DNA from: Pseudomonadota bacterium
GTDB taxonomy: Bacteria; Bdellovibrionota_G; JALEGL01; DATDPG01
Direction of reading: 5' to 3'
Length of the DNA stretch: 64,000 nt
NCBI GenBank assembly: GCA_043809315.1
Contig: JAZDDX010000027.1
Span: forward strand, 6,943 to 70,942
Shown piece by piece: positions 51,547-64,000 of the stretch. The stretch's first letter is position 1. Every line of letters begins with the position of its first letter. The position numbers and the translations under genes are program-made. The notes beneath the pieces were generated by a model. The model made no database searches. It was not told where the DNA came from and was given only the letters and a program-made list of their open reading frames with translations.

Positions 51547-51924
51547 GTGATCGGACGCTTGGCGGAAGAGATCCTGTCCCATTCCACGATGGCGGTATTG
51601 CGCGCCCTATCGGAGCGTGCCTGCGGGGTCCGGGAGGTTGCCGATCTGTGCGGTCTCTCTCCGCGCGGTAGTTCTCTGGTTCTCCATCGCTTGGTGGTGG
51701 CGGGGCTAGCGGAACGAACTGGCCAGGCCTATTCCGCCGCTTTGTCTGCGGACGACGCCGAGATCCTTCGAATCCTGGTTGGGGCGGCCGAAAAGACCGA
51801 ACTCAGACGCCGTGCCGGGGATCTCTCCGCGGGCGCCAAACGATCGGTCCAATGGATCGACGGGACGCTCGGGAAACTTCAACAGGTGAGGAAGAGATAC
51901 CGTGGGGCCGATCGAACTTCTTGA
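51547..51924 (+). CDS. Small winged-HTH transcriptional regulator, putative antitoxin (AbiEi-like) of the downstream nucleotidyltransferase.
   Basis: wHTH segment (VREVADLCGLSPRGSSLVLHRLVVAGLAERTG). Overlaps the downstream gene by 23 nt. An alternative ATG start lies at ~51589. Confidence 0.5.
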   Translation: MIGRLAEEILSHSTMAVLRALSERACGVREVADLCGLSPRGSSLVLHRLVVAGLAERTGQAYSAALSADDAEILRILVGAAEKTELRRRAGDLSAGAKRSVQWIDGTLGKLQQVRKRYRGADRTS

Positions 51925-52534
51925 GTCGGCTGTCCGGGCTCTGCGCAAAGTTGATTGCCGTTTTGCGGTTGCGGGGGGGATTGCCGCGAACCTGTTCCGC
52001 TCCGAGCCGCGTCTCACGCAAGACGTAGACCTGTTGCTTCTTGCCGATCCAATCGAAAAGACGGAAGAGATCGCCACGCGGTTTCTGCAAAAGCTTGGGT
52101 TCGAAGTGGGGCGAGCCAAGGTGGCTGATCTGGTGCAAGCGCAGATGATGGGGAAGAAAACGACACCGGTCGTATTGTTGGTCGGCCGGGAGAAAGGAAC
52201 AAAAGGGGAAGGGGGAGTCGATATCCTTCTTCCCAAGATGGCGTGGGTACAGGGGGCGATCGAACGTGCCCAGCACCATCGGGTCGATTTCGGCTTCGGG
52301 AAACTCCCGACCATTACGATTGAAGACTTCATCGTGTCGAAACTCTTTGCTCTCCGGGATAACCCGAGCCGGTTCAAGGATCTGGACGATCTGCAGTCGC
52401 TTTTTGGCTCGAACCCCTCGCTGGATCTCGTTTATCTGGCAGGGGCGTTCGGACGGTACCATCTCACGCTGCCGAGGGAGCTCAGGCGACTTGCTCCGAA
52501 AGGGATACGGGCGGCAGCTCGAAGGCCGGGTTGA
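51902..52534 (+). CDS. AbiEii/DUF1814-like nucleotidyltransferase (putative type IV TA toxin-like NTase).
   Basis: Pol-beta NTase motif FAVAGGIAANLF...R.TQDVDLLL, which matches the DUF1814 G[GS] and R.[ST].D.D pattern. GTG start overlapping the wHTH gene. Confidence 0.55.
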   Translation: MGPIELLESAVRALRKVDCRFAVAGGIAANLFRSEPRLTQDVDLLLLADPIEKTEEIATRFLQKLGFEVGRAKVADLVQAQMMGKKTTPVVLLVGREKGTKGEGGVDILLPKMAWVQGAIERAQHHRVDFGFGKLPTITIEDFIVSKLFALRDNPSRFKDLDDLQSLFGSNPSLDLVYLAGAFGRYHLTLPRELRRLAPKGIRAAARRPG

Positions 52535-53911: not shown

Positions 53912-54766
53912 GTGGTGCTCCTGGACGGCAAGGCGTTCGCAAAAAAAATCCGAAGCGATCTTACGACCCGGATCCGGACGTTTTCGGCCCGGACCGGGGT
54001 CATTCCTGGGTTGGCGACGCTCTTGGTCGGCGACAATGCCGCATCCAAGGTCTACGTCGGAAGCAAAGTCAAAACGTGCGGCGAGGTGGGGATCCATTCC
54101 CGGAAGATCGAGTTGTCCGCCGACTTGGCGGAAGGGTCGCTTATCAAAGAGATCGAAGCTCTCAACCGCGATCCCGCGATCCACGGGATCCTCGTCCAGC
54201 TCCCCCTGCCGAAGCAGATCCGCCCGGAGCGGATCCTGGATGCCGTCGATCCTTCGAAAGATGTCGATGGCTTTCATGTCATCAACGCCGGGCGGCTTGC
54301 GACCGGGCAGCCGGGGTTTGTTCCCTGCACCCCCCTGGGAATCGTCCGCCTTCTGGAGGAATACAAAGTGCCGATCGAGGGGAAGAGGGCGGTGGTCGTG
54401 GGAAGGAGCAACATCGTCGGGAAGCCGGTGGCGCAGCTCCTGTTGAATCGCCACGCGACCGTGACAATCTGTCACTCGCGTACGATAGATCTCCCGGCGG
54501 TCTGTCGCGAAGCCGACATCCTGATCGCGGCGATCGGGAAGGCCGAGGTCGTCCGCGGTGATTGGATCCAGCCGGGGGCGGCGGTGGTCGACGTCGGGAT
54601 CAACCGAAACCCGGACGGGACGTTGACGGGGGATGTAAAGTTTTCGGAGGCATCGGAGCGGGCAGGATGGCTGACCCCGGTTCCGGGGGGGGTGGGACCC
54701 TTGACGATAGCGATGCTTCTCTCAAACACGCTGGAAGCGGCGGAGAAATGGATGGAGCGGAAATGA
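53912..54766 (+). CDS. folD: Bifunctional methylenetetrahydrofolate dehydrogenase/cyclohydrolase.
   Basis: N-terminus LLDGKAFAKKIR..., THF_DHG_CYH domains, and GRSNIVGKP. Confidence 0.9.
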   Translation: MVLLDGKAFAKKIRSDLTTRIRTFSARTGVIPGLATLLVGDNAASKVYVGSKVKTCGEVGIHSRKIELSADLAEGSLIKEIEALNRDPAIHGILVQLPLPKQIRPERILDAVDPSKDVDGFHVINAGRLATGQPGFVPCTPLGIVRLLEEYKVPIEGKRAVVVGRSNIVGKPVAQLLLNRHATVTICHSRTIDLPAVCREADILIAAIGKAEVVRGDWIQPGAAVVDVGINRNPDGTLTGDVKFSEASERAGWLTPVPGGVGPLTIAMLLSNTLEAAEKWMERK

Positions 54767-55860
54767 CGGAGCTGAAGCGGACGCCGTTGTACGAACGGCA
54801 CAAGAGTCTGGGGGGGAAGATCGTCCCGTTCGCAGGATGGGAGATGCCGCTCGAGTACAGCGGGATCTTGAAAGAGCACGAAGCGGTCCGGACTGCGGTC
54901 GGGATCTTCGATGTGAGCCACATGGGGGAGATCGAGATCCGGGGGAAGCAGGCACTGGAGTTCTGCCAGAAAGTCTCCACCAACGACGCCTCCGCCTTGA
55001 AGCCGGGAAAAGTCCAGTACTCGGCGATCCTGAATGCCGAGGGGGGGATCGTCGATGACTGCACGCTCTATCGGATCGGGGAGGAACATTTCCTTTTTGT
55101 CGTGAATGCCTCGCGGAAGGAGAACGTGCTTCGCTGGTTCGAGGGACACCCGATGGAGGGGGCGAAGGTCGAGGACCGGAGCGACGATTACGGGTTGCTC
55201 GCCCTTCAGGGGAAAAAGTCCGAAGATCTCTTGAGCCGTCTCGTCCATCGCGATCTTTCGACGGTCGGATACTACGAGTTCACGTGGACCGAACTCTCCG
55301 GTGCCGCAGTGATGATCTCTCGGACCGGATACACGGGCGAGGACGGGTTCGAGATCTATCTCCCGTGGGAGAAAACCGTCGAGATTTGGGATCTCCTGAT
55401 GAAGGAAGGGAGTTCGGTCGGGATCACGCCGATCGGTCTGGGCGCGCGCGATACGCTTCGTCTGGAGATGGGGTACTCGCTCTACGGAAACGAGTTGAAC
55501 GAACACACGACTCCTCTCGAGGCGGGGTTGGCCTGGATCGTCAAGATGGACAAAGGAACATTTTTCGGCCGGAACCGTCTGGTTGAGCAGAAAGAGAAGG
55601 GGCTCACGCGGAGGATCCGCGGCATCAAGATGATCGACCGCGGGATCCCGCGTCCGCACTACGAGATCTATTCCGCCGGCAGGAAGATCGGGGAGGTTAC
55701 GAGCGGGACCTTTTCCCCGACCCTCAAGCAGGGGGTGGGGTTGGCGATGCTTCCGGCGGAGTTGAAGGAAGGGAACGAACTCTCGGTTCGGATCCGCGAG
55801 AAGGATAACCGGGCGGCGATCACGAAACCTCCGTTTGTCGCAGGGTCGGTGAAAAAATAA
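54763..55860 (+). CDS. gcvT: Glycine cleavage system aminomethyltransferase T.
   Basis: Start at MTELKRTPLYERH (ATGA overlap with folD). GCV_T domain. Confidence 0.9.
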   Translation: MTELKRTPLYERHKSLGGKIVPFAGWEMPLEYSGILKEHEAVRTAVGIFDVSHMGEIEIRGKQALEFCQKVSTNDASALKPGKVQYSAILNAEGGIVDDCTLYRIGEEHFLFVVNASRKENVLRWFEGHPMEGAKVEDRSDDYGLLALQGKKSEDLLSRLVHRDLSTVGYYEFTWTELSGAAVMISRTGYTGEDGFEIYLPWEKTVEIWDLLMKEGSSVGITPIGLGARDTLRLEMGYSLYGNELNEHTTPLEAGLAWIVKMDKGTFFGRNRLVEQKEKGLTRRIRGIKMIDRGIPRPHYEIYSAGRKIGEVTSGTFSPTLKQGVGLAMLPAELKEGNELSVRIREKDNRAAITKPPFVAGSVKK

Positions 55861-55895
55861 ATCCCTTGCGGGGGTAAAAGTTCTGTGATGAGAAA

Positions 55896-56297
55896 TTGAC
55901 CATGGAAATCCCGGATGATCTTCGTTACACGCGCGAACACGAGTGGGCGCGCATTGATCTGAAACAGAAAACCGCGACCATCGGCCTCACGGACTATGCC
56001 CAGGAGCATTTGGGGGACGTGGTGCACGTCGATCTCCCCGAGGAGGGGGCGGAGCTTGCGCGCGAGGAGCCGTTCGGGAGCGTCGAGTCGGTGAAGGCGG
56101 TTTCCGATGTGTTTGCCCCGATCTCCGGAAAGGTGATCGAGATCAATGATGACCTTCTCGATTCCCCGGAAATGATGAACGAAGATCCGTACGGTGAGGC
56201 GTGGCTGGTGAAGGTCAAGTTCACCGACACCAAGGGGATCGATAAACTGATGGACGCTGCGGCATACAAAAAATACTGCGAATCGCAGGAAGAATAA
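55896..56297 (+). CDS. gcvH: Glycine cleavage system H protein.
   Basis: Lipoyl-lysine motif region (ESVKAVSD) and YTKEHEW N-terminus. Confidence 0.9.
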   Translation: MTMEIPDDLRYTREHEWARIDLKQKTATIGLTDYAQEHLGDVVHVDLPEEGAELAREEPFGSVESVKAVSDVFAPISGKVIEINDDLLDSPEMMNEDPYGEAWLVKVKFTDTKGIDKLMDAAAYKKYCESQEE

Positions 56298-57634
56298 TGC
56301 GTTACATTCCCCTGACCGGCGCCGACCGGGAGGCGATGCTCAGGGAGATCGGCGTCCAATCGATCGACGACCTCTTCCGTTCGATTCCGGCGTCGTCCCG
56401 GAAGAAGAGCGCCCCGGAACTGCCGGCGGCGAAGACCGAATCGGAACTTCTCGGATATTTTCACGCTCTGGCCCAGAAGAACCTCCCCAACGGGGAGAAA
56501 TGGCTCTCGTTTCTCGGGGGAGGGGCGTACGACCATTTCGTGCCGACGATCGTCGACGCGCTCTCCAGCCGCGGGGAGTTCCTGACGGCATACACGCCGT
56601 ACCAGCCGGAGGTGAGTCAGGGAACCTTGCAGGCGATCTTCGAATTTCAATCCCTGGTCGCGAATCTCTTCGGTCTCGATTGCGCGAATGCCTCGATGTA
56701 CGACGGGGCGTCGGCTGCAGCCGAGGCGGTTTTGATGGCGATGCGGATCAAGGATGGGAACCGCATTTTTCTTTCGAAGGGACTCCATCCGGAATACCAG
56801 CAGGTGATTCGGGCCTATCTCCGGGAAACGGAAGTAGAGATTGTCGAGCTCGAACTCGATGCTTCCGGTCGGACGGTTCTTCCGACGCTTCCGACCGGCA
56901 CCCTGGCGGGGGTGATATCGCAACCGAACTTCTTCGGCGTCATCGAGAACCTGTCTCCGCTGGCTGACTCCGTTCATGCGGGCGGCGGTTTGTTGATCAC
57001 CGCGACTCCGGAGGGGATGGCGTTCGGCGCAATCCGGGATCCCGGTTCGGAGGGGGCCGACATCGTCGCCGGGGAGGGGCAGTCGTTCGGAAACTACCTG
57101 AATTACGGCGGGCCGTACGTCGGACTGCTCGCGACGAAACGGGAATATGTGCGGCAGATTCCGGGGCGGCTGGTCGGAAGGACCGTCGACCGCGAGGGAA
57201 AAGAGGGGTACGTGTTGACGCTCGCGACCCGCGAACAACACATCCGCCGCGAGAAGGCGACCTCCAACATCTGCACGAATCACTCGCTCTGCGCCCTGCG
57301 AGCCTGCATCTATCTCGCGACGGTCGGGGAGCGCGGACTGCGGGAGATCGCGCTCCGAAATATGTGGGCGGCACACAAGCTGCGGACGAGTCTGCTGGAA
57401 CTGAAAGGGGTCGAGGCGGTCTACAAGGGGCCGGTCTTCAACGAGTTCACGGTTCGGCTCCCGATTTCAACCGAGGCGTTTCTCTCGAAGATGGAAGCAG
57501 AAAAAGTCCTCGGGGGGATTCCGATCTCGAAATGGGATCAGGCCCGGACCCACGATCTCCTGATTGCCGTCACCGAGACGAAGAGCCCGGACGATCTGGA
57601 TCGCTACGTTGCCGCGGCTAGGAAGGCGCTATGA
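56297..57634 (+). CDS. gcvPA: Glycine dehydrogenase (decarboxylating) subunit 1.
   Basis: GDC-P N-terminal half. Start overlaps the gcvH stop. Confidence 0.9.
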   Translation: MRYIPLTGADREAMLREIGVQSIDDLFRSIPASSRKKSAPELPAAKTESELLGYFHALAQKNLPNGEKWLSFLGGGAYDHFVPTIVDALSSRGEFLTAYTPYQPEVSQGTLQAIFEFQSLVANLFGLDCANASMYDGASAAAEAVLMAMRIKDGNRIFLSKGLHPEYQQVIRAYLRETEVEIVELELDASGRTVLPTLPTGTLAGVISQPNFFGVIENLSPLADSVHAGGGLLITATPEGMAFGAIRDPGSEGADIVAGEGQSFGNYLNYGGPYVGLLATKREYVRQIPGRLVGRTVDREGKEGYVLTLATREQHIRREKATSNICTNHSLCALRACIYLATVGERGLREIALRNMWAAHKLRTSLLELKGVEAVYKGPVFNEFTVRLPISTEAFLSKMEAEKVLGGIPISKWDQARTHDLLIAVTETKSPDDLDRYVAAARKAL

Positions 57635-59148
57635 AGGAACCGAACGAGATCCAGCGGGCGTTCCATCACGTCTCGAATCTCTTCGAGAAGAGCCACACGA
57701 AAGGGGACGGGGAGCGGAACGGGTATGTTCCTCCGATCCCGGCTGAGGAACTTTCAAAGGTCGTTCCGTCGAACTTGCTGCGGACGAAGGTTCCCAACTT
57801 TCCTCAACTCTCCGAAGTGGAGGTGGTCCGCCATTTCACGCGTCTTTCCCAGCTCAACTTTGGGATCGACAGCGGGACGTATCCCCTCGGTTCGTGCACG
57901 ATGAAATACAACCCGAGGGTCAACGAACGGGTCGCGTCGGAGGAAGGGTTCACTTCGCTCCATCCGTACACGCCGGAGAAGTATGCCCAGGGGGCGCTGG
58001 CGCTGATGTACGAACTCCAGCAGGCGTTGATCACGATCACCGGACTCAAGGGATGCAGTCTCCAGCCGGCGGCCGGTGCGCATGGCGAACTGGTCGGCGT
58101 CCAGATGATCCGGGCGTATCACCGGAAAAAGGGGCAGAAGCAGCGGACGACGATCCTCGTCCCCGATTCCGCGCACGGCACCAACCCGGCGAGTGCCGCA
58201 CTCTGCGGTCTCAAGGTGAAGCAACTCGCCTCAGGACCAAATGGGATGCTCGAAGTCGCCGATGTCGAGAAGGCGATGGACGACACGGTGGCCGGGATCA
58301 TGGTCACCGTTCCGAACACTCTGGGGATCTTCGAAGAGAAGATCATCGAGATCGCGAGCTTGGTTCACGAGCGGGGTGGGTTGGTTTACTGCGATGGCGC
58401 GAACCTGAACGCCCTCGTCGGCAAGGTCGATTTCCGCGCGATCGGGGTCGACGTCATGCACATTAACCTCCACAAGACCTTTTCCACGCCGCACGGTGGA
58501 GGGGGTCCGGGGGCGGGGCCGGTGGTGGTTTCCGAGAAACTCCTCGATTTCCTGCCGATTCCGCTGGTCCGGAAGCGGGGAGAAGATACCTATTTTCTCG
58601 ACGATACGGTTTCACACACAATCGGGCGGTTCCGGTCGTTCTACGGGAATTTCGGGGTCCTGGTTCGGGCGCTTTGTTACATCTATGCGTTCGGGCCGGA
58701 GGGGATCTCGGAGATTGCGAACGGGTCGGTGCTGAACGCGAACTACCTCAAGACGAAGCTGAAAGCTTCGTATCACCTTCCGTACTCGACGCCGACGCTC
58801 CACGAGGCGGTGTTCACCGACAAATGGCAGCAGGCGAACCACGTTTCCACGCTCGACGTCGCCAAGCGGATGATGGATTTCGGGATCCATCCGCCGACGG
58901 TCTATTTCCCTCTCGTGGTGCGCGGAGCGCTCATGATCGAGCCTACGGAGACGGAGTCGAAGGAAGATTTAGACCGATTCGTAGCGATCCTCACCCTGAT
59001 CGCGGAGGAAGCGAAAACGAATCCGGAGAAGCTAACCGGTGCACCCCATAACCTGGGAATCCGCAGGCTCGACGAGACGAGGGCTGCGCGGGAACCGATC
59101 CTCACCTGGAACCCGCCGGGCGCGAAACCGGTTCGAAAGTCTCCGTAG
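57631..59148 (+). CDS. gcvPB: Glycine dehydrogenase (decarboxylating) subunit 2 (PLP-binding).
   Basis: ATGA overlap with gcvPA. GDC-P C-terminal half with the PLP Lys region (NLHKTFSTPHGGGGPG). Confidence 0.9.
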   Translation: MKEPNEIQRAFHHVSNLFEKSHTKGDGERNGYVPPIPAEELSKVVPSNLLRTKVPNFPQLSEVEVVRHFTRLSQLNFGIDSGTYPLGSCTMKYNPRVNERVASEEGFTSLHPYTPEKYAQGALALMYELQQALITITGLKGCSLQPAAGAHGELVGVQMIRAYHRKKGQKQRTTILVPDSAHGTNPASAALCGLKVKQLASGPNGMLEVADVEKAMDDTVAGIMVTVPNTLGIFEEKIIEIASLVHERGGLVYCDGANLNALVGKVDFRAIGVDVMHINLHKTFSTPHGGGGPGAGPVVVSEKLLDFLPIPLVRKRGEDTYFLDDTVSHTIGRFRSFYGNFGVLVRALCYIYAFGPEGISEIANGSVLNANYLKTKLKASYHLPYSTPTLHEAVFTDKWQQANHVSTLDVAKRMMDFGIHPPTVYFPLVVRGALMIEPTETESKEDLDRFVAILTLIAEEAKTNPEKLTGAPHNLGIRRLDETRAAREPILTWNPPGAKPVRKSP

Positions 59149-59214: not shown

Positions 59215-60447
59215 TTGGATATCTATATTTGGTTTGTGATGACCGAGTTTCCTCGACTGCTCTCCCGGTGGGCCTTCTCTGAGATGCAGAGCAAGAGCCT
59301 TGTGCCGATGGTCTGGATAACGGGCGCACGGCAAGTGGGCAAGACTTGGATGGTTTCAAAACTTCCGGGGAACTATTTCAACTGGGATACGGTCGAGACC
59401 CGCAAAGCATTCGCCAAGGACCCGTACTTCTTTCGCAGCGAACGGCGGCTGGTCATCTTCGATGAGATCCATAAACGACGGGACTGGAAGAAGATTCTGA
59501 AGGGATACTACGATTCAGCCGATCGGCGGGAAAATTTCCTCGTCACGGGCTCCGGGAAAATGGATCAGTATCTAAGGGGAGGTGACAGCCTTCAGGGGAG
59601 GTACGATCTGTACCATCTGTGGCCGATCACGTGGGATGAGTTCAAGAGATTTAGGGGAAAACTAGCGTCGCCGCGAAACTGGGCGGAATGGGAGCCCGGC
59701 GACCCGACCGGGTCGGATCGGGACCTGATTCGTCTGGGCGGCTTTCCGAAGCCCCTGCTTCAAGGAAGTGAGCAGCGGCTGCGAAGATGGCAGGATCAGT
59801 ACCTGGACCGCTTGGTTCGAGAAGATACGCGCGATTTCAGTGCCGTTCAGCGCCTCGATCAGTTGGACCTGCTGGCGAGAATCCTGCCGGACCGGGTCGG
59901 ATCTCCGATTTCGGTCAAGAGCCTCTCAGAGGACATCGAGTCAAGTACGATCGGCGTGAAATCGTGGCTCCGCCTTTTCGAAGTGCTCTATCTGGGGTTC
60001 CGGGTTCATCCCTACCATCGGAAAATCCATCGGGCCGTGAAAAAAGAACCCAAGTGGTACTTCTATCAATGGACCTTCGTCGAAAATCCCGCGGCACGTT
60101 TTGAAAACTATCTAGCCGTCCAGCTTGCGGCGGCATGTTCCGCCTGGTCCGAGCAGGGGTTCGGCCGCTGGGAACTTTTCTATCTCCGAGATCAGGATCG
60201 GAGGGAGGTCGATTTCCTTCTCTGCAGGGATCTTAAACCCCAGGTACTGGTGGAAGCGAAGACATCCGAACAGTCTTGGCCCTCCGCCTTGCACTTCTAT
60301 TGCAAGAAACTCCAAGTCCCGGGATTTCTGGTCTATCCGGGCGGCACGGACAAGAAGACGGATGTGGTTCGGCGAGTCGCGCCGACAGGTTGGACGGTTC
60401 CCTCGTCTCGGTTTCTCTCGGGTTTGCTGCTGGAGAAGACTCAATAA
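59215..60447 (+). CDS. AAA-domain ATPase with C-terminal DUF4143-like domain (standalone ATP-binding protein).
   Basis: P-loop GARQVGKT and Walker B VIFDEIH. The C-terminal region is typical of the DUF4143 family. Confidence 0.65.
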   Translation: MDIYIWFVMTEFPRLLSRWAFSEMQSKSLVPMVWITGARQVGKTWMVSKLPGNYFNWDTVETRKAFAKDPYFFRSERRLVIFDEIHKRRDWKKILKGYYDSADRRENFLVTGSGKMDQYLRGGDSLQGRYDLYHLWPITWDEFKRFRGKLASPRNWAEWEPGDPTGSDRDLIRLGGFPKPLLQGSEQRLRRWQDQYLDRLVREDTRDFSAVQRLDQLDLLARILPDRVGSPISVKSLSEDIESSTIGVKSWLRLFEVLYLGFRVHPYHRKIHRAVKKEPKWYFYQWTFVENPAARFENYLAVQLAAACSAWSEQGFGRWELFYLRDQDRREVDFLLCRDLKPQVLVEAKTSEQSWPSALHFYCKKLQVPGFLVYPGGTDKKTDVVRRVAPTGWTVPSSRFLSGLLLEKTQ

Positions 60448-61370
60448 ACCGGCCGAAGCGTTACGATAAACCCCCAGTTCGGGACGTGGATCAACCCGTC
60501 CTCTTCCACCAGCTGCGGCGGGGGGTTCAAGAACGGGGCCGCGCGCCGGACGGCGTCGATCGCCTCCTGATCCAGCTTGCGGTTCCCGGACGAATTCAGA
60601 AGGAACAGATCGTTCAGATATCCGTTCTTCTTGATCGTGAACTGGAGGGTCGTCACGTATTGATCCCTCGCGAGACGCTCAGAGGAAATGGTCGAGGTCG
60701 GATCCCAGATCGCCTCCATCTGCCGTTTCATTCGGATGAAGAAGGTGGCGTAGGCATATTCCCGCGTGTTCAGAACGGTGGAATCGCCGATCGCGATCTG
60801 CGGCAGATAATTCGACGGAGCGAGCATGGCGAGCTTGGAGTTCGACGGTCCCATGGCGGGCATTTCTTTCCCCAGAATGGAAGACGGGACGTCCCAGCGG
60901 AACTTTCCGTTTCCCGGTTTCATTGACTCCCGGGCAGTGGATCCGGCTCTCCCGATCGGGGAGGTCGGGTTCGGTCCCGTCAAACGGGCCTGGGTTTCCC
61001 GCTCGGCTGTGCGGTTTTTGTCGCTCCAAAACTGAGCATTGTCTGGCGCCTTTTTTTCGTTCGCTTTCGAGTCGAGGAGGTCGACCAGTTCCCCTTTCGG
61101 GCTCAAGAGGTTCCGATCCGATTTCGTTTCCGGGAAACGGACCCGGAGGACTTTTTCGCGGGAGGCGGCGACCGCCGTATCCTTGGACCAGGTCCCGAAT
61201 GTCGGGATCAGCCCTACGAAAAAGAAATGGAGGAAGAGGGAGGCGGCGATCGGCCACCAGAGGGAGAGTCGTTCTTCCCGGACGGTCGTATTCAAGCGTG
61301 AGAATCGTATCACAACCGGGCCGGTCCGGGTTGACCCGACAGAGCGAATCTGGTTGGATGCGCCGCTCAT
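60441..61370 (-). CDS. tonB: TonB family energy transducer (N-terminal TM anchor, Pro/Lys-rich linker, TonB_C domain).
   Basis: TM helix LWWPIAASLFLHFFFVGLIPTF and a C-terminal TonB_C-like fold (YPPQLVEEDGLIHV-type region). The start may be an internal GTG, since the ATG is only 13 nt from the divergent folE start. Confidence 0.6.
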   Translation of the reverse strand: MSGASNQIRSVGSTRTGPVVIRFSRLNTTVREERLSLWWPIAASLFLHFFFVGLIPTFGTWSKDTAVAASREKVLRVRFPETKSDRNLLSPKGELVDLLDSKANEKKAPDNAQFWSDKNRTAERETQARLTGPNPTSPIGRAGSTARESMKPGNGKFRWDVPSSILGKEMPAMGPSNSKLAMLAPSNYLPQIAIGDSTVLNTREYAYATFFIRMKRQMEAIWDPTSTISSERLARDQYVTTLQFTIKKNGYLNDLFLLNSSGNRKLDQEAIDAVRRAAPFLNPPPQLVEEDGLIHVPNWGFIVTLRPVY

Positions 61371-61383
61371 TTAGGGAGGCAAC

Positions 61384-61932
61384 GTGGAAGAGCAGATTCG
61401 GGAAATCCTCAAACAAATCGGCGAAAACCCGGAACGGGAAGGGCTTTTGAAAACGCCGGAACGGGTGGCAAAGGCGTACCGGTTCCTGACGAAGGGGTAT
61501 TCGGAGGATCCGAAGAAGGTGGTCAACGGGGCCGTCTTCACGGAGGAGCAGCGGGACATGGTCATGGTCCGGAACATCGACTTCTTCTCCCTCTGCGAGC
61601 ACCACATGCTTCCGTTTTTCGGGAAGTGTCACGTCGCCTACATCCCGAACCGGAAGATCATCGGTCTCTCCAAAATGGCCCGCCTCGTCGACATCTACGC
61701 CCGCCGCCTCCAGGTTCAGGAACGCCTCACGTGGGAGATCGCCAACACGATTCAGGACGCGCTCACCCCTCTCGGGGTGGCGGTCGTGATGGAGGCGCAG
61801 CACCTCTGCATGATGATGCGGGGGGTGGAACGGCAGAACTCCGTGGCGGTCACCAGCGCGATGCTGGGGGCCTTCCAGGAGCGGTACGCGACCCGCGCGG
61901 AGTTCATGTCCCTGATCAAGCCGACGTCGTAA
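61384..61932 (+). CDS. folE: GTP cyclohydrolase I.
   Basis: Motifs [31 protein letters not shown] and RLQVQERLT. Confidence 0.9.
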
Positions 61933-61956
61933 CGTGACATTCGTGGGCATTGGCGT

Positions 61957-62289
61957 TTGAGCGATCGGCCCGATAGAATGAGTTCCGTGTTGAAGGGGGG
62001 AGGGGACGAAACCACCCGCCTCTATGGCGAGGTGGGGCGCCTTGTCGAGATCACGGTTGAGGGGAAGGGGTATCGGGTCCCCGAACGCCTGGAACTCCTC
62101 CGCTGCTTTCAGTACCTCGATTTTCAGATCGCCTACGAACAGTTTTGCTGGAACGCCACCTGCAAAAACTGCGCCGCGAACCTCCGCTCCGACCCGAAGA
62201 AAAAGAAGAAACGAGAGCTCTGCTGCCAGACGCCGGCGCTGGAGGGGATGGCGGTCGAGAAACTGCCGGTCGGGGTCCGCGTCCGCTAA
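61957..62289 (+). CDS. Hypothetical small Cys-rich protein (possible 2Fe-2S ferredoxin-like).
   Basis: Cys spacing C-x11-C-x4-C-x2-C (LRCFQ...FCWNATCKNC) after a beta-grasp-like ITVEGKGYRV segment. The start is uncertain. Confidence 0.35.
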   Translation: MSDRPDRMSSVLKGGGDETTRLYGEVGRLVEITVEGKGYRVPERLELLRCFQYLDFQIAYEQFCWNATCKNCAANLRSDPKKKKKRELCCQTPALEGMAVEKLPVGVRVR

Positions 62290-62336
62290 CTGCGGCAAGC
62301 CTTGACCTCGCCGATTCGGCGTGTTTTGAACCGCTC

Positions 62337-62723
62337 ATGAGCGACCGTTACCTTGTCCGCACGGAGGCGTTCTTCGAAGCTGCCCACAACCTTCGTTCGT
62401 ATCACGGGAAACCGGAACCGTTGCACGGACACAGTTGGAAGGTGGAGGTCGAGGTCGAGGCGGACGGCTTGGACTCGGAGGGGATGGCCGTCGACTTCGT
62501 GCAGGTGACTTCCGCTCTGACAGGAGTCGTGAAGAAACTGGACTATACGTACTTGAACGAAGTCCCGCCGTTCACCGATCTCGCCCCGACGGCGGAGAAC
62601 ATCGCGGCCTGGATCTGCCGGGAGCTGGCCGGCCCGGTCGGTCGGCAGGGTGGAAAGGTTCACGAGGTGAGGGTCTTCGAAGGAAGACACGCGTCAGCCG
62701 CTTATCGACCGGCGGCAGTCTAA
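62337..62723 (+). CDS. PTPS/QueD-family protein lacking the catalytic cysteine (Pro substitution: HGKPEPLHGHSW).
   Basis: 6-pyruvoyl-tetrahydropterin synthase fold motifs (EAAHNL, LHGHSW, E-x-H region). Start at the MSDRYLV ATG. Confidence 0.7.
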   Translation: MSDRYLVRTEAFFEAAHNLRSYHGKPEPLHGHSWKVEVEVEADGLDSEGMAVDFVQVTSALTGVVKKLDYTYLNEVPPFTDLAPTAENIAAWICRELAGPVGRQGGKVHEVRVFEGRHASAAYRPAAV

Positions 62724-63130
62724 GATTTCCAGTATCGGGCGTACTGCGTCGGGGTTTCCCAGACTTTCACCTCGGTCACGGGGAGCCCTAAAGACTCGGC
62801 CTTTTCGAACAAAATTCGGGAGATGTTTTCCGCCGTGGGGTTTCCCTCGATCCGGAAGACCGGCTCACCCAGTTTTTCGAGAGGGGACGCGAGAGGGTCG
62901 TCCCTGCGTAGGAGCATTTTGTGGTCGATCGTTGTCTCGATCCAGGCCTTGAGCTTCGACTTGATCTCGTTGAAATCGACCACCATCCCCCGACCGTCGA
63001 GCGACGGGGACTCGAACGTCAACTCCGCCACGGCATTGTGGCCGTGGAGGTGGGCGCACTTCCCATCGTAGTCGAGAAGACGATGTCCGTAACAGAAACA
63101 GATCTGTTGGGTGACTCCGAACCGATTCAT
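62720..63130 (-). CDS. queD: 6-carboxy-5,6,7,8-tetrahydropterin synthase (QueD/PTPS) with intact Cys-x3-HGH.
   Basis: GKCAHLHGHN motif plus conserved Glu/His. Convergent with the PTPS paralogue, with a 4-nt overlap. Confidence 0.75.
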   Translation of the reverse strand: MNRFGVTQQICFCYGHRLLDYDGKCAHLHGHNAVAELTFESPSLDGRGMVVDFNEIKSKLKAWIETTIDHKMLLRRDDPLASPLEKLGEPVFRIEGNPTAENISRILFEKAESLGLPVTEVKVWETPTQYARYWKS

Positions 63131-63217
63131 CGATACCCCGTTCGGGTGGCACCATACGGCGCCGGTGGAACAGGGTCAACTTGCGGAGTCGACGTAAAAC
63201 CGGCACAACTTCTCACC

Positions 63218-64000
63218 GTGAAACTGAGTTCAGCCGAGATTTCCGGTCTCCTGGAAGAGATAGCGGTTCTTCTGGAACTTAAAGGGGAGAATCCGTTCAA
63301 GATCCGGGCGTATCGAAATGCCGCGCGGAAGCTTGAGGAGGTCGGGAGCGACCTAGCGGAGCGGGTGGAGCGGGGTTCGCTGGAGGAGCTCGAAGGGATC
63401 GGAAAGGCTTTGGCGGAGAAGATCACGGCGCTTGCGCGTACCGGCCGCTTGGAGGAGTACGAACGACTTCGCTCCGAGACCCCGGAGGGTCTGCTGGATC
63501 TCTTGAAGGTCGCCGGCCTCGGTCCGAAGAAAGTCAGGGCGCTCCACGAAAAGCTGGGGATCTATTCGCTCGATGGTCTGGAAAAGGCCTGTCGGGGGAA
63601 TCGGATCGCGATGCTGGAAGGGTTCGGGCTCAAGACGCAGGAGAAGATCCTGGCAGGGATCGCGAATGTGCGAAAGAACCAGGATCTGTTTCTCTTCGCC
63701 GAAGCGATCGACCTTGCGGAAGAAGTCAAAAACACCATCTCCGGTTGGAGAGAGGTCCTGCAGGTTTCCCTGGCGGGGAGTCTCCGGCGGCGGAACGAGA
63801 CGGTCCGGGATGTCGACATCGTCTGCTCCTCCCGGCGGCCCAAAGCGGTGATGGAGAAGTTCACGAAGCTTCCCGGAGTGGTCCGTGTCACGGAGCATGG
63901 CGAGACGAAGTCGAGAGTCGTATTCGAGAGGGGGCTGGCGTTCGATCTTCGGGTCGTGACGGAAGAACAGTTCCCGTTCGCGCTCCAGCATTTCACCGGG
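63218..64000 (+). CDS. polX: Family X DNA polymerase (PolX/YshC-like), 5' part only (continues beyond the window).
   Basis: Translation from the GTG at ~63218 is stop-free to the window end. N-terminus KLSSAEISGLLEEIAVLLELKGENPFKIRAYRNAARKL plus HhH motifs (GIGKALAEKI, GLGPKK) typical of Pol beta-like PolX. Not in the ORF track because there is no stop. Confidence 0.7.
   Translation, partial: MKLSSAEISGLLEEIAVLLELKGENPFKIRAYRNAARKLEEVGSDLAERVERGSLEELEGIGKALAEKITALARTGRLEEYERLRSETPEGLLDLLKVAGLGPKKVRALHEKLGIYSLDGLEKACRGNRIAMLEGFGLKTQEKILAGIANVRKNQDLFLFAEAIDLAEEVKNTISGWREVLQVSLAGSLRRRNETVRDVDIVCSSRRPKAVMEKFTKLPGVVRVTEHGETKSRVVFERGLAFDLRVVTEEQFPFALQHFTG

Follow-up and report, generated by a model that had tools for sequence, protein, structure and literature searches.

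Predicted PTPS-III and QueD paralogues downstream of folE: a probable branch point between folate and queuosine synthesis in a Bdellovibrionota-like bacterium

Why should a gene for GTP cyclohydrolase I (folE) be followed by a small Cys-rich ORF and by two convergent genes of the PTPS family, the first of which encodes a protein without the catalytic Cys of QueD? A preliminary description of this locus had proposed that the four genes form a non-canonical pterin branch, for example a bypass of FolB by a PTPS-III. Within the window (the whole 64-kb stretch of a metagenome-assembled genome that was analyzed) the four genes were confirmed (Table 1). Quite probably the locus is a pterin branch point composed of known enzyme classes, with one PTPS directed to folate and the other to queuosine, the Fer2_4-type protein encoded by the small ORF being most likely independent of both.

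More than one COG0720 paralogue is found in about 15% of bacterial genomes, and the subfamilies are told apart by their active-site signatures, which are Cx3HGH for PTPS-I and Cx5HGH for PTPS-II (PMC5041015) and ExxHGH, the defining signature, for PTPS-III (PMC5041015; PMC9894224). Enzymes with the motif CExxHGH have been described as PTPS-I/III hybrids (PMC5041015).

Table 1. Genes of the pterin locus and of its folate context (positions in the window)
Feature	Position	Strand	Length	Matches and remarks
folE	61384-61932	+	182 aa	Pfam PF01227 GTP_cyclohydroI, NCBIfam TIGR00063
Small Fer2_4-type ORF	61957/61978/61987-62289	+		Pfam Fer2_4, sub-threshold
PTPS-III-type gene (predicted)	62337-62723	+	128 aa	Pfam PTPS PF01242, COG0720
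PTPS-I/QueD-type gene (predicted)	62720-63130	-	136 aa	Pfam PTPS, COG0720
folD, then gcvT, gcvH, gcvPA, gcvPB	53912-59148 (folD 53912-54766)	+		Context genes

The folE product matches Pfam GTP_cyclohydroI with E = 4e-79 and TIGR00063 with 262.5 bits (cutoff 181.6), and its translation contains the zinc-site motifs CEHH and GKCH; as judged from these features, it is a zinc-dependent GTP cyclohydrolase I of type IA. About 2.2 kb upstream of folE lie the tetrahydrofolate-dependent one-carbon genes folD-gcv (Pfam THF_DHG_CYH, GCV_T, GCV_H and GDC-P), of which gcvPB was called from its own translation and from GDC-P matches on syntenic orthologues in the relative loci L001 and L005. The order gcv-TonB-folE is also found in L005. 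The PTPS-III-type gene is the second gene downstream of folE on the same strand, and this neighborhood recurs in the relative loci L003/4, L005, L008/9 and L070. The stop codons of the two PTPS genes overlap (62720-62723), and their products are 31.6% identical to each other. A minus-strand ORF of 539 aa (60679-62298) was rejected as a gene, its GC content by codon position (0.78/0.45/0.57) being an antisense pattern.

The rest of the two pathways is not encoded nearby. Pfam scans of the approximately 60 ORFs of the window revealed no FolB, HPPK, Pterin_bind or QueC domain. Neither folK nor folP was found in the 64 kb by these scans and by tblastn with approximate E. coli queries, of which that for FolK picked up genes in gammaproteobacterial loci and hence works; tblastn with an approximate E. 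coli FolB query gave no match in the window either. These negative tblastn results for the window are weak evidence. Also missing from the window are queC, queE and queF (for queC no tblastn match with the QueC of a clade relative), in agreement with the preliminary description as far as queC and queE are concerned. The sole radical-SAM protein of the window is read as having the MiaB/RimO arrangement, and not as QueE, because a UPF0004 domain adjoins its radical-SAM domain. An Rfam scan of positions 60000-64000 yielded no THF or preQ1 riboswitch, and a scan for promoters and terminators gave weak matches only, with terminator-like sites no commoner than in shuffled sequence.

The minus-strand PTPS (Pfam PTPS, E = 4.9e-31) contains the stretch KCAHLHGHN, of which CAHLHGHN had already been noticed, and within it C25-A-H-L-H29-G-H31, the Cx3HGH signature of PTPS-I/QueD; it also has His16 and, within IDHKML, an Asp-His pair. 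Its best NCBIfam match is QueD (TIGR03367) with 75.1 bits, below the cutoff of 89.25, and its best relatives in the PDB are 3jyg, 2oba and QueD2 7v0f. Orthologues with 63-68% identity are encoded in L003, L005, L007 and L008 near queC, which lies approximately 1-2.5 kb from the PTPS gene in L003/4, L005/6, L007 and L008/9; queE was not seen there. We predict that the minus-strand protein is a 6-carboxy-tetrahydropterin synthase of the PTPS-I/QueD type.

Could the protein be not, or not only, a QueD but a PTPS that works together with a pteridine reductase in forming a tetrahydropterin cofactor (biopterin- or monapterin-like)? In L003/4, L005/6, L007 and L008/9 the orthologue is located directly downstream of a gene for a short-chain dehydrogenase/reductase (SDR), the top NCBIfam match of which is "pteridine reductase" with 230-236 bits, and in L007 folE, the SDR gene and the gene for the Cys-containing PTPS form one co-directional run. 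The score below the QueD cutoff also speaks for such a function, as does the promiscuity of PTPS-I enzymes that Phillips et al. reportedly described in 2012. However, the motif of the minus-strand protein is Cx3HGH rather than the Cx5HGH of PTPS-II, queC is a near neighbor in the same relatives that bear the SDR, and no such SDR is encoded in the window; moreover, the SDR might just as well serve the folate branch, as a FolM-type reductase of folates or pterins. We consider a cofactor-forming PTPS to be unlikely and retain the prediction of QueD.

For the small ORF three starts come into question, TTG 61957 (110 aa), ATG 61978 (103 aa) and GTG 61987 (100 aa). The 110-aa protein of the preliminary description corresponds to the first of these, but the protein has six Cys rather than the four then counted. 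The GC content by codon position (0.62/0.43/0.80) is typical of coding sequence and matches that of real genes of the window, and nine orthologues have 36 invariant positions in common, including all six Cys. Across the wider family (298 representatives at 50% identity, at least 2126 clusters at 90%) C64, C69, C72 and C90 (110-aa numbering) are invariant or nearly so; in the numbering of the 103-aa form C57, C62 and C83 do not vary at all, and at least 90% of the family have C65. With Pfam Fer2_4 (PF13510) the protein scores 20.9-21.2 bits, slightly less than the gathering threshold of 22.8; of 57 family members, 52 match this domain (best E-value 2.2e-9). No NCBIfam equivalog matches the protein. 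An AF2 model calculated with a 56-sequence alignment has a pLDDT of 81.9 (just 36.8 with a 5-sequence alignment), and its top Foldseek matches are N-terminal 2Fe-2S domains of NuoG/NDUFS1 (E approximately 7e-4 to 1e-3, TM approximately 0.5). By these sequence and model data the ORF is a real, conserved gene for a probable stand-alone Fer2_4-type protein of predicted [2Fe-2S] fold belonging to a large uncharacterized family, with C64, C69, C72 and C90 as predicted cluster ligands.

From the position of the gene the preliminary description had implied a role of this protein in pterin synthesis, and one can think of a [2Fe-2S]-type protein that is a dedicated partner of FolE and PTPS-III, be it as redox sensor, as metal or electron donor or as regulator of flux. 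The order folE-Fer2_4-PTPS-III, on one strand and with short gaps, is found in the window, in L003/4, L005/6 and L008/9/L070 and also on short contigs with P0001/P0007 and P0003/P0016, the pair folE-Fer2_4 is kept in L071, and within the clade none of the six Cys varies. Yet in four related lineages (L001/2, L069, L072 and L073/74) the orthologue is flanked by a TonB-like gene on one side and by PolX or endonuclease III on the other, and folE and PTPS genes are missing from its neighborhood; conversely, neither gene calling nor searching revealed a Fer2_4 gene in L007, where folE, the SDR gene and both PTPS genes are present; and acidobacterial members of the family adjoin glutaredoxin and kinase genes instead. 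Nor do we know of any redox step in the FolE or PTPS-III reactions. The link between the small ORF and the pterin genes is weak because four lineages keep the ORF without them and because its acidobacterial neighbor is a glutaredoxin gene. We therefore regard a dedicated partner as very unlikely, although in that case folE-Fer2_4-PTPS-III would be a new pterin module of three genes. Less probable still is that the Fer2_4 protein has a function in pterin synthesis, coupling redox or iron-sulfur status to the flux through the two zinc enzymes or serving a further redox step, and that together with a PTPS-III having Asp-Tyr it constitutes a new variant of the FolB bypass. Most likely the Fer2_4 protein is independent of the pterin genes, though syntenic within the Bdellovibrionota-like clade; the evidence presented here argues against a pterin-specific role, and the family as such offers a modest lead.

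There remains the plus-strand PTPS, in which Pfam PTPS is matched over residues 8-125 (E = 4.4e-34) and the active-site stretch reads KPEPLHGHSW. Alignment to the solved structures of QueD from E. coli and P. aeruginosa puts Pro26 opposite the catalytic Cys, which upholds the register in which Pro had been reported in place of the Cys. The residue after Pro26 is Glu27, and E27-P-L-H30-G-H32 is the ExxHGH signature of PTPS-III; the other key residues are His17 (third zinc ligand), Asp69-Tyr70 and Glu115. Neither paralogue of the window has a Cys six positions ahead of HGH, as the PTPS-II signature would require. With QueD TIGR03367 the plus-strand protein scores 86.1 bits, which is likewise under the cutoff.

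In the PTPS of P. falciparum (PfPTPS) the Glu in this register, Glu-38 in the motif FRETLHGH, is essential by experiment: the exchange of this residue for Cys, Gln or Leu abolishes the formation of 6-hydroxymethyl-dihydropterin (PMC2229834). The validation of PTPS-III as an enzyme of the folate pathway, in one eukaryote and eight prokaryotes, dates back to 2008-2009 (PMC3223725). The suggestion of a PTPS-III bypassing FolB is supported by the ExxHGH motif and its agreement in register with PfPTPS; "non-canonical branch" was overstated for a class of enzymes known that long.

Among the closest homologues (best 120 of 861) Glu27, His17, His30 and His32 are found in 120 of 120 and the pterin-binding Glu115 in 119, and Tyr replaces the His of the QueD Asp-His pair, as it does in the plus-strand protein, in 66. 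The invariance of Glu27 and of the zinc-binding His and the near-invariance of Glu115 argue for an active enzyme under selection. We predict that the plus-strand protein is of the PTPS-III type and forms 6-hydroxymethyl-7,8-dihydropterin for folate synthesis. That it is instead a catalytically inactive or structural copy, the scenario which the preliminary description had set against its own proposal and which could invoke the missing nucleophilic Cys and the Tyr of the Asp-Tyr pair, is hardly credible, because the zinc ligands, Glu27 and the pterin-binding Glu are conserved as given above in homologues from many phyla and because a Glu at the catalytic position is competent in validated PTPS-III enzymes (PMC2229834; PMC3223725).

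Homologues with 50-52% identity and an identical motif occur in Thermoanaerobaculia/Acidobacteriota. Acidobacteria are said to be among the phyla for which the 2009 study on PTPS-III found no folB. Phyla without folB are listed, with citation of that study, in PMC4674097. On Acidobacteria-like and Omnitrophica contigs the homologues of the plus-strand PTPS are solitary genes without folate neighbors, so that the genomic context there adds no support for a role in folate synthesis. In a scan of contigs, Spirochaetes and Leptospirales yielded CExxHGH motifs and Gammaproteobacteria the plain Cx3HGH; the recovered set consisted mostly of gammaproteobacterial Cx3HGH QueD, with the genome of the window and its close relatives lying outside it. 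A literature search for Bdellovibrio in combination with dihydroneopterin aldolase found nothing.

PTPS-III enzymes convert dihydroneopterin triphosphate to 6-hydroxymethyl-dihydropterin, and FolB is thereby bypassed. In the pathway that we propose, FolE would form 7,8-dihydroneopterin triphosphate (H2NTP) from GTP, and H2NTP would be the common substrate of both PTPS paralogues. The plus-strand PTPS-III would hold zinc on His17, His30 and His32 and use Glu27 as base instead of the Cys of QueD; it would cut the side chain of H2NTP to give 6-hydroxymethyl-7,8-dihydropterin, which would proceed to FolK and FolP without the dihydroneopterin aldolase FolB, the gene for which would be absent from the genome. 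The minus-strand PTPS-I/QueD, with the Cys of its Cx3HGH motif, would convert the same H2NTP to 6-carboxy-tetrahydropterin for the synthesis of preQ0 and queuosine, and the small [2Fe-2S] protein of predicted ferredoxin fold would work apart from the pterin genes.

At NCBI the plus-strand protein bears the name "6-carboxytetrahydropterin synthase", which is that of QueD. Mis-annotation within COG0720 is a known problem (PMC5041015), and the main value of our analysis lies in annotation, the QueD name standing against the signature of the folate enzyme PTPS-III. If the PTPS-III assignment is true, uncultured Bdellovibrionota-like bacteria would make folate de novo without FolB, and at this locus H2NTP would be shared out between the folate and the queuosine pathway.

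How do the three proteins compare with known systems? The small protein has in common with the Fer2_4 domain of complex I (NuoG/NDUFS1, cluster N1b) the arrangement C-x4-C-x2-C...C and the predicted ferredoxin-like fold; it differs in being a stand-alone protein of approximately 100 aa, not part of a large oxidoreductase, and in having conserved motifs of its own (VPExxxLLRCFQYL and FCWN). The minus-strand PTPS resembles E. coli QueD (PDB 4NTM/3QN0) in Cx3HGH, the third His, the Asp-His pair and the C-terminal Glu, and QueD in general in being its top NCBIfam match and in the proximity of queC to its orthologues. Unlike E. coli QueD it has an insertion of approximately 15 residues (RRDDPLASPLEKLGEP), it scores below the QueD cutoff, its closest solved relative is the uncharacterized 3JYG, and its orthologues in relatives share an operon with a pteridine-reductase-like SDR. 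The plus-strand PTPS is only distantly similar to PfPTPS (PDB 1Y13; phmmer E = 3.6e-4) and differs from PTPS-III in the Pro before the Glu and in Asp-Tyr for the Asp-His pair. With PTPS-III, of which PfPTPS and the bacterial enzymes described in 2009 are examples, it shares the ExxHGH signature with the Glu in the same register (KPEPLHGH versus FRETLHGH), the three zinc-binding His, the C-terminal pterin-binding Glu, the length of approximately 125 aa and a gene position near folE and folate-dependent genes.

ORF listing and direct reading of positions 60400-64000 established the genes of the pterin locus (see table), all four of which had been placed correctly in the preliminary description, and both motifs quoted there were seen again, KPEPLHGHSW in the plus-strand PTPS and KCAHLHGHN in the minus-strand PTPS. 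The two proteins are 31.6% identical. Their genes overlap by 4 bases at the stop codons (62720-62723), which leaves no space for an intervening terminator, so that transcripts of both strands must overlap.

Genes of the pterin locus and of the tetrahydrofolate-dependent set upstream of it (window coordinates)
Gene	Position	Strand	Basis and remarks
folD	53912-54766		Pfam
gcvT, gcvH, gcvPA	after folD, in this order		Pfam
gcvPB	57631-59148		translation and GDC-P matches of syntenic orthologues
folE	61384-61932	+	Pfam GTP_cyclohydroI, E=4e-79; NCBIfam folE equivalog, 262.5 bits (cutoff 181.6)
small Cys-rich ORF	61957-62289	+	alternative starts ATG 61978 and GTG 61987
PTPS-family gene, 128 aa	62337-62723	+	Pfam PTPS, E=4.4e-34
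PTPS-family gene, 136 aa, convergent with the plus-strand PTPS gene	62720-63130	-	Pfam PTPS, E=4.9e-31

An HMMER alignment with solved QueD structures (2OBA, 4NTM, 3QN0) puts Pro26 of the plus-strand protein opposite the catalytic Cys of QueD, and the motif register read earlier was therefore correct. Pro26 is directly followed by Glu27, giving E-P-L-H-G-H, an ExxHGH motif. In COG0720 the signatures are CxxxHGH for PTPS-I/QueD, CxxxxxHGH for PTPS-II, ExxHGH for PTPS-III and CExxHGH for PTPS-I/III hybrids (PMC5041015); the catalytic motifs define the classes, and PTPS-III forms hydroxymethyl-dihydropterin for folate (PMC9894224). In the founding study, the Plasmodium falciparum PTPS was found to have the active-site motif FRETLH(GH) and to require Glu-38 for the formation of 6-hydroxymethyl-dihydropterin, which was lost in E38C, E38Q and E38L (PMC2229834). 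Glu27 lies in exactly the Glu-38 register. When species-representative genomes were scanned, ExxHGH proteins were found in Thermoanaerobaculia, CExxHGH motifs in Spirochaetes and Leptospirales, and plain Cx3HGH in Gammaproteobacteria. These motif classes agree by phylum with the published distribution.

In a MAFFT alignment of the 120 best of 861 homologues, His17, His30 and His32 (predicted zinc ligands) and Glu27 (predicted catalytic Glu; 75 times in PEPL, 29 times in SEPL, the others in further variants) are invariant, and Glu115 (predicted pterin-binding Glu) is present in 119. Judged by this near-complete conservation the protein belongs to a large conserved family of active-type enzymes, and its reading as a degenerate copy is very improbable. 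The Asp-His pair of QueD corresponds to Asp69-Tyr70; position 70 is Tyr in 66 and His in 52 of the 120 closest ExxHGH homologues, a split for which we found no published explanation in the literature. A protein 100% identical to the plus-strand PTPS, encoded on an 86.7-kb contig of an NCBI MAG, is annotated as '6-carboxytetrahydropterin synthase', a QueD-type name that is likely a mis-annotation.

To the observed gene identities, motifs, conservation and synteny, family knowledge (PMC2229834, PMC5041015, PMC3223725, PMC4674097) adds the products that we infer for these enzymes. FolE would make 7,8-dihydroneopterin triphosphate (H2NTP), whose side chain PTPS-III would cleave, with Glu27 as base and zinc on His17/30/32, to yield 6-hydroxymethyl-7,8-dihydropterin for FolK/FolP, a route that would bypass FolB. 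The Cx3HGH paralogue would make 6-carboxy-tetrahydropterin (CPH4) for preQ0/queuosine.

Just upstream of the folE locus lies a tetrahydrofolate-dependent set, folD with a complete gcv set, followed by a DUF4143 ATPase gene, a TonB-like gene (minus strand) and folE; the order gcv-TonB-folE is kept in the related locus L005. About 60 ORFs of the window were scanned with Pfam, and none showed a FolB, HPPK, Pterin_bind or QueC domain; tblastn of the window with QueC and the short-chain dehydrogenase/reductase (SDR) of clade relatives gave no match. The only radical-SAM protein among the scanned ORFs also carries UPF0004 and is read as a MiaB/RimO arrangement rather than QueE. As stated earlier, the window has neither queC nor queE. 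Positions 60000-64000 gave no riboswitch match. The DUF4143/AAA_14 gene (59215-60447) has a homologue elsewhere in L008/L009, between the PTPS-III and Cys-containing PTPS genes, which suggests that the neighbourhood contains a mobile or variable element. Housekeeping genes surround an AbiEii-type nucleotidyltransferase toxin domain (51902-52534; Pfam E=1.7e-8), and the ORFs flanking it have no Pfam match.

The closest relatives are Bdellovibrionota-type MAGs, in which the common order is gcvTHP, TonB-like (minus), folE, Fer2_4 (the small Cys-rich gene), PTPS-III (plus), then PTPS(Cx3HGH) (minus) with SDR (minus) ahead of it in the direction of transcription, queC (plus), PolX and a HhH-GPD glycosylase. 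SDR and queC are missing from this locus in the window lineage, either lost or never there. The Cx3HGH PTPS gene is the second of a conserved operon behind SDR (L003:3971-5103, L005:9886-11036, L007:8426-10187, L008:3316-4454), and the best NCBIfam match of SDR is 'pteridine reductase' (230-236 bits, under the cutoff of 288). This pairing raises the possibility of a tetrahydropterin role for the Cys paralogue, instead of or alongside queuosine, which we consider unlikely. L007 deviates: folE, SDR and PTPS(Cys) are co-directional, a run resembling the three-enzyme set of tetrahydrobiopterin synthesis, PTPS-III adjoins queC, and the Fer2_4 gene is absent. The common order and this variant indicate a pterin-centred neighbourhood mixing folate-type and queuosine-type genes. 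In L003 (1132-1501) and likewise L004 a DUF2442 gene lies between folE and the Fer2_4 gene, and behind it a 27-aa fragment with 70% identity to FolE, seemingly the scar of an insertion or duplication.

The small ORF, credited earlier with four Cys, has six. Its codon-position GC (0.62/0.43/0.80) is in line with other window genes and nine orthologues have 36 invariant positions in common, all six Cys included; both features mark it as a real gene. Searching 1.84 billion representatives with a profile yielded 298 relatives (84 at E≤1e-10), every one small (about 70-210 aa) among the matches listed (150 of 298), and a second search brought up at least 2126 clusters (90% identity), mostly pre-annotated Fer2_4; Pfam Fer2_4 is matched by 52 of 57 family members. 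V-P, LLR.FQ, C-W-N, C-x2-C and a distal Cys are (nearly) invariant, and the conserved Cys give the predicted ligand pattern C-x4-C-x2-C...C of a 2Fe-2S site. In Foldseek, an AF2 model (56-sequence alignment, pLDDT 81.9) finds its best PDB matches, with E about 7e-4 to 1e-3 and TM about 0.5, in complex I NuoG/NDUFS1 (N-terminal 2Fe-2S domain) and in related electron-bifurcating enzymes.

A real functional link of this protein to the pterin system is very improbable. The order folE-Fer2_4-PTPS-III does recur (window, L003/4, L005/6, L008/9/L070, two short contigs) and L071 retains folE-Fer2_4, but in four related lineages the orthologue (49-58% identical) has the TonB-like gene as one immediate neighbour and PolX or endonuclease III as the other, with neither folE nor PTPS flanking it (L001:1559-4498 with L002, L069:2166-3402, L072:3-1777, L073:40-2071 with L074:3-978). 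folE and PTPS-III lie on opposite flanks, and under either history, two losses or two gains, the small gene is the stable element. Acidobacterial members of this stand-alone Fer2_4 family adjoin a divergently transcribed gene for a 73-aa glutaredoxin and a gene for a TPR-containing Ser/Thr kinase (L010:4709-5288, L012:4671-5291, L013:3001-5300). We conclude that this is a small protein of general redox or iron-sulfur type, its adjacency to pterin genes being syntenic, not functional. The most stable neighbours of the gene in the clade are the DNA-repair genes PolX and endonuclease III, the latter encoding a 4Fe-4S protein; a rhodanese gene is nearby in two of the three acidobacterial loci.

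What the locus adds is a small, uncharacterised Fer2_4 protein, probably unrelated to the pterin genes, and a likely error of database annotation. Replacement of FolB by PTPS-III has been validated in one eukaryote and eight prokaryotes (PMC3223725), multiple COG0720 genes occur in about 15% of bacterial genomes, and physical clustering sufficed to tie the three PTPS families to their pathways (PMC5041015), a pattern that folE beside PTPS-III fits. The plus-strand PTPS thus represents a known enzyme class, now in an uncultured lineage.
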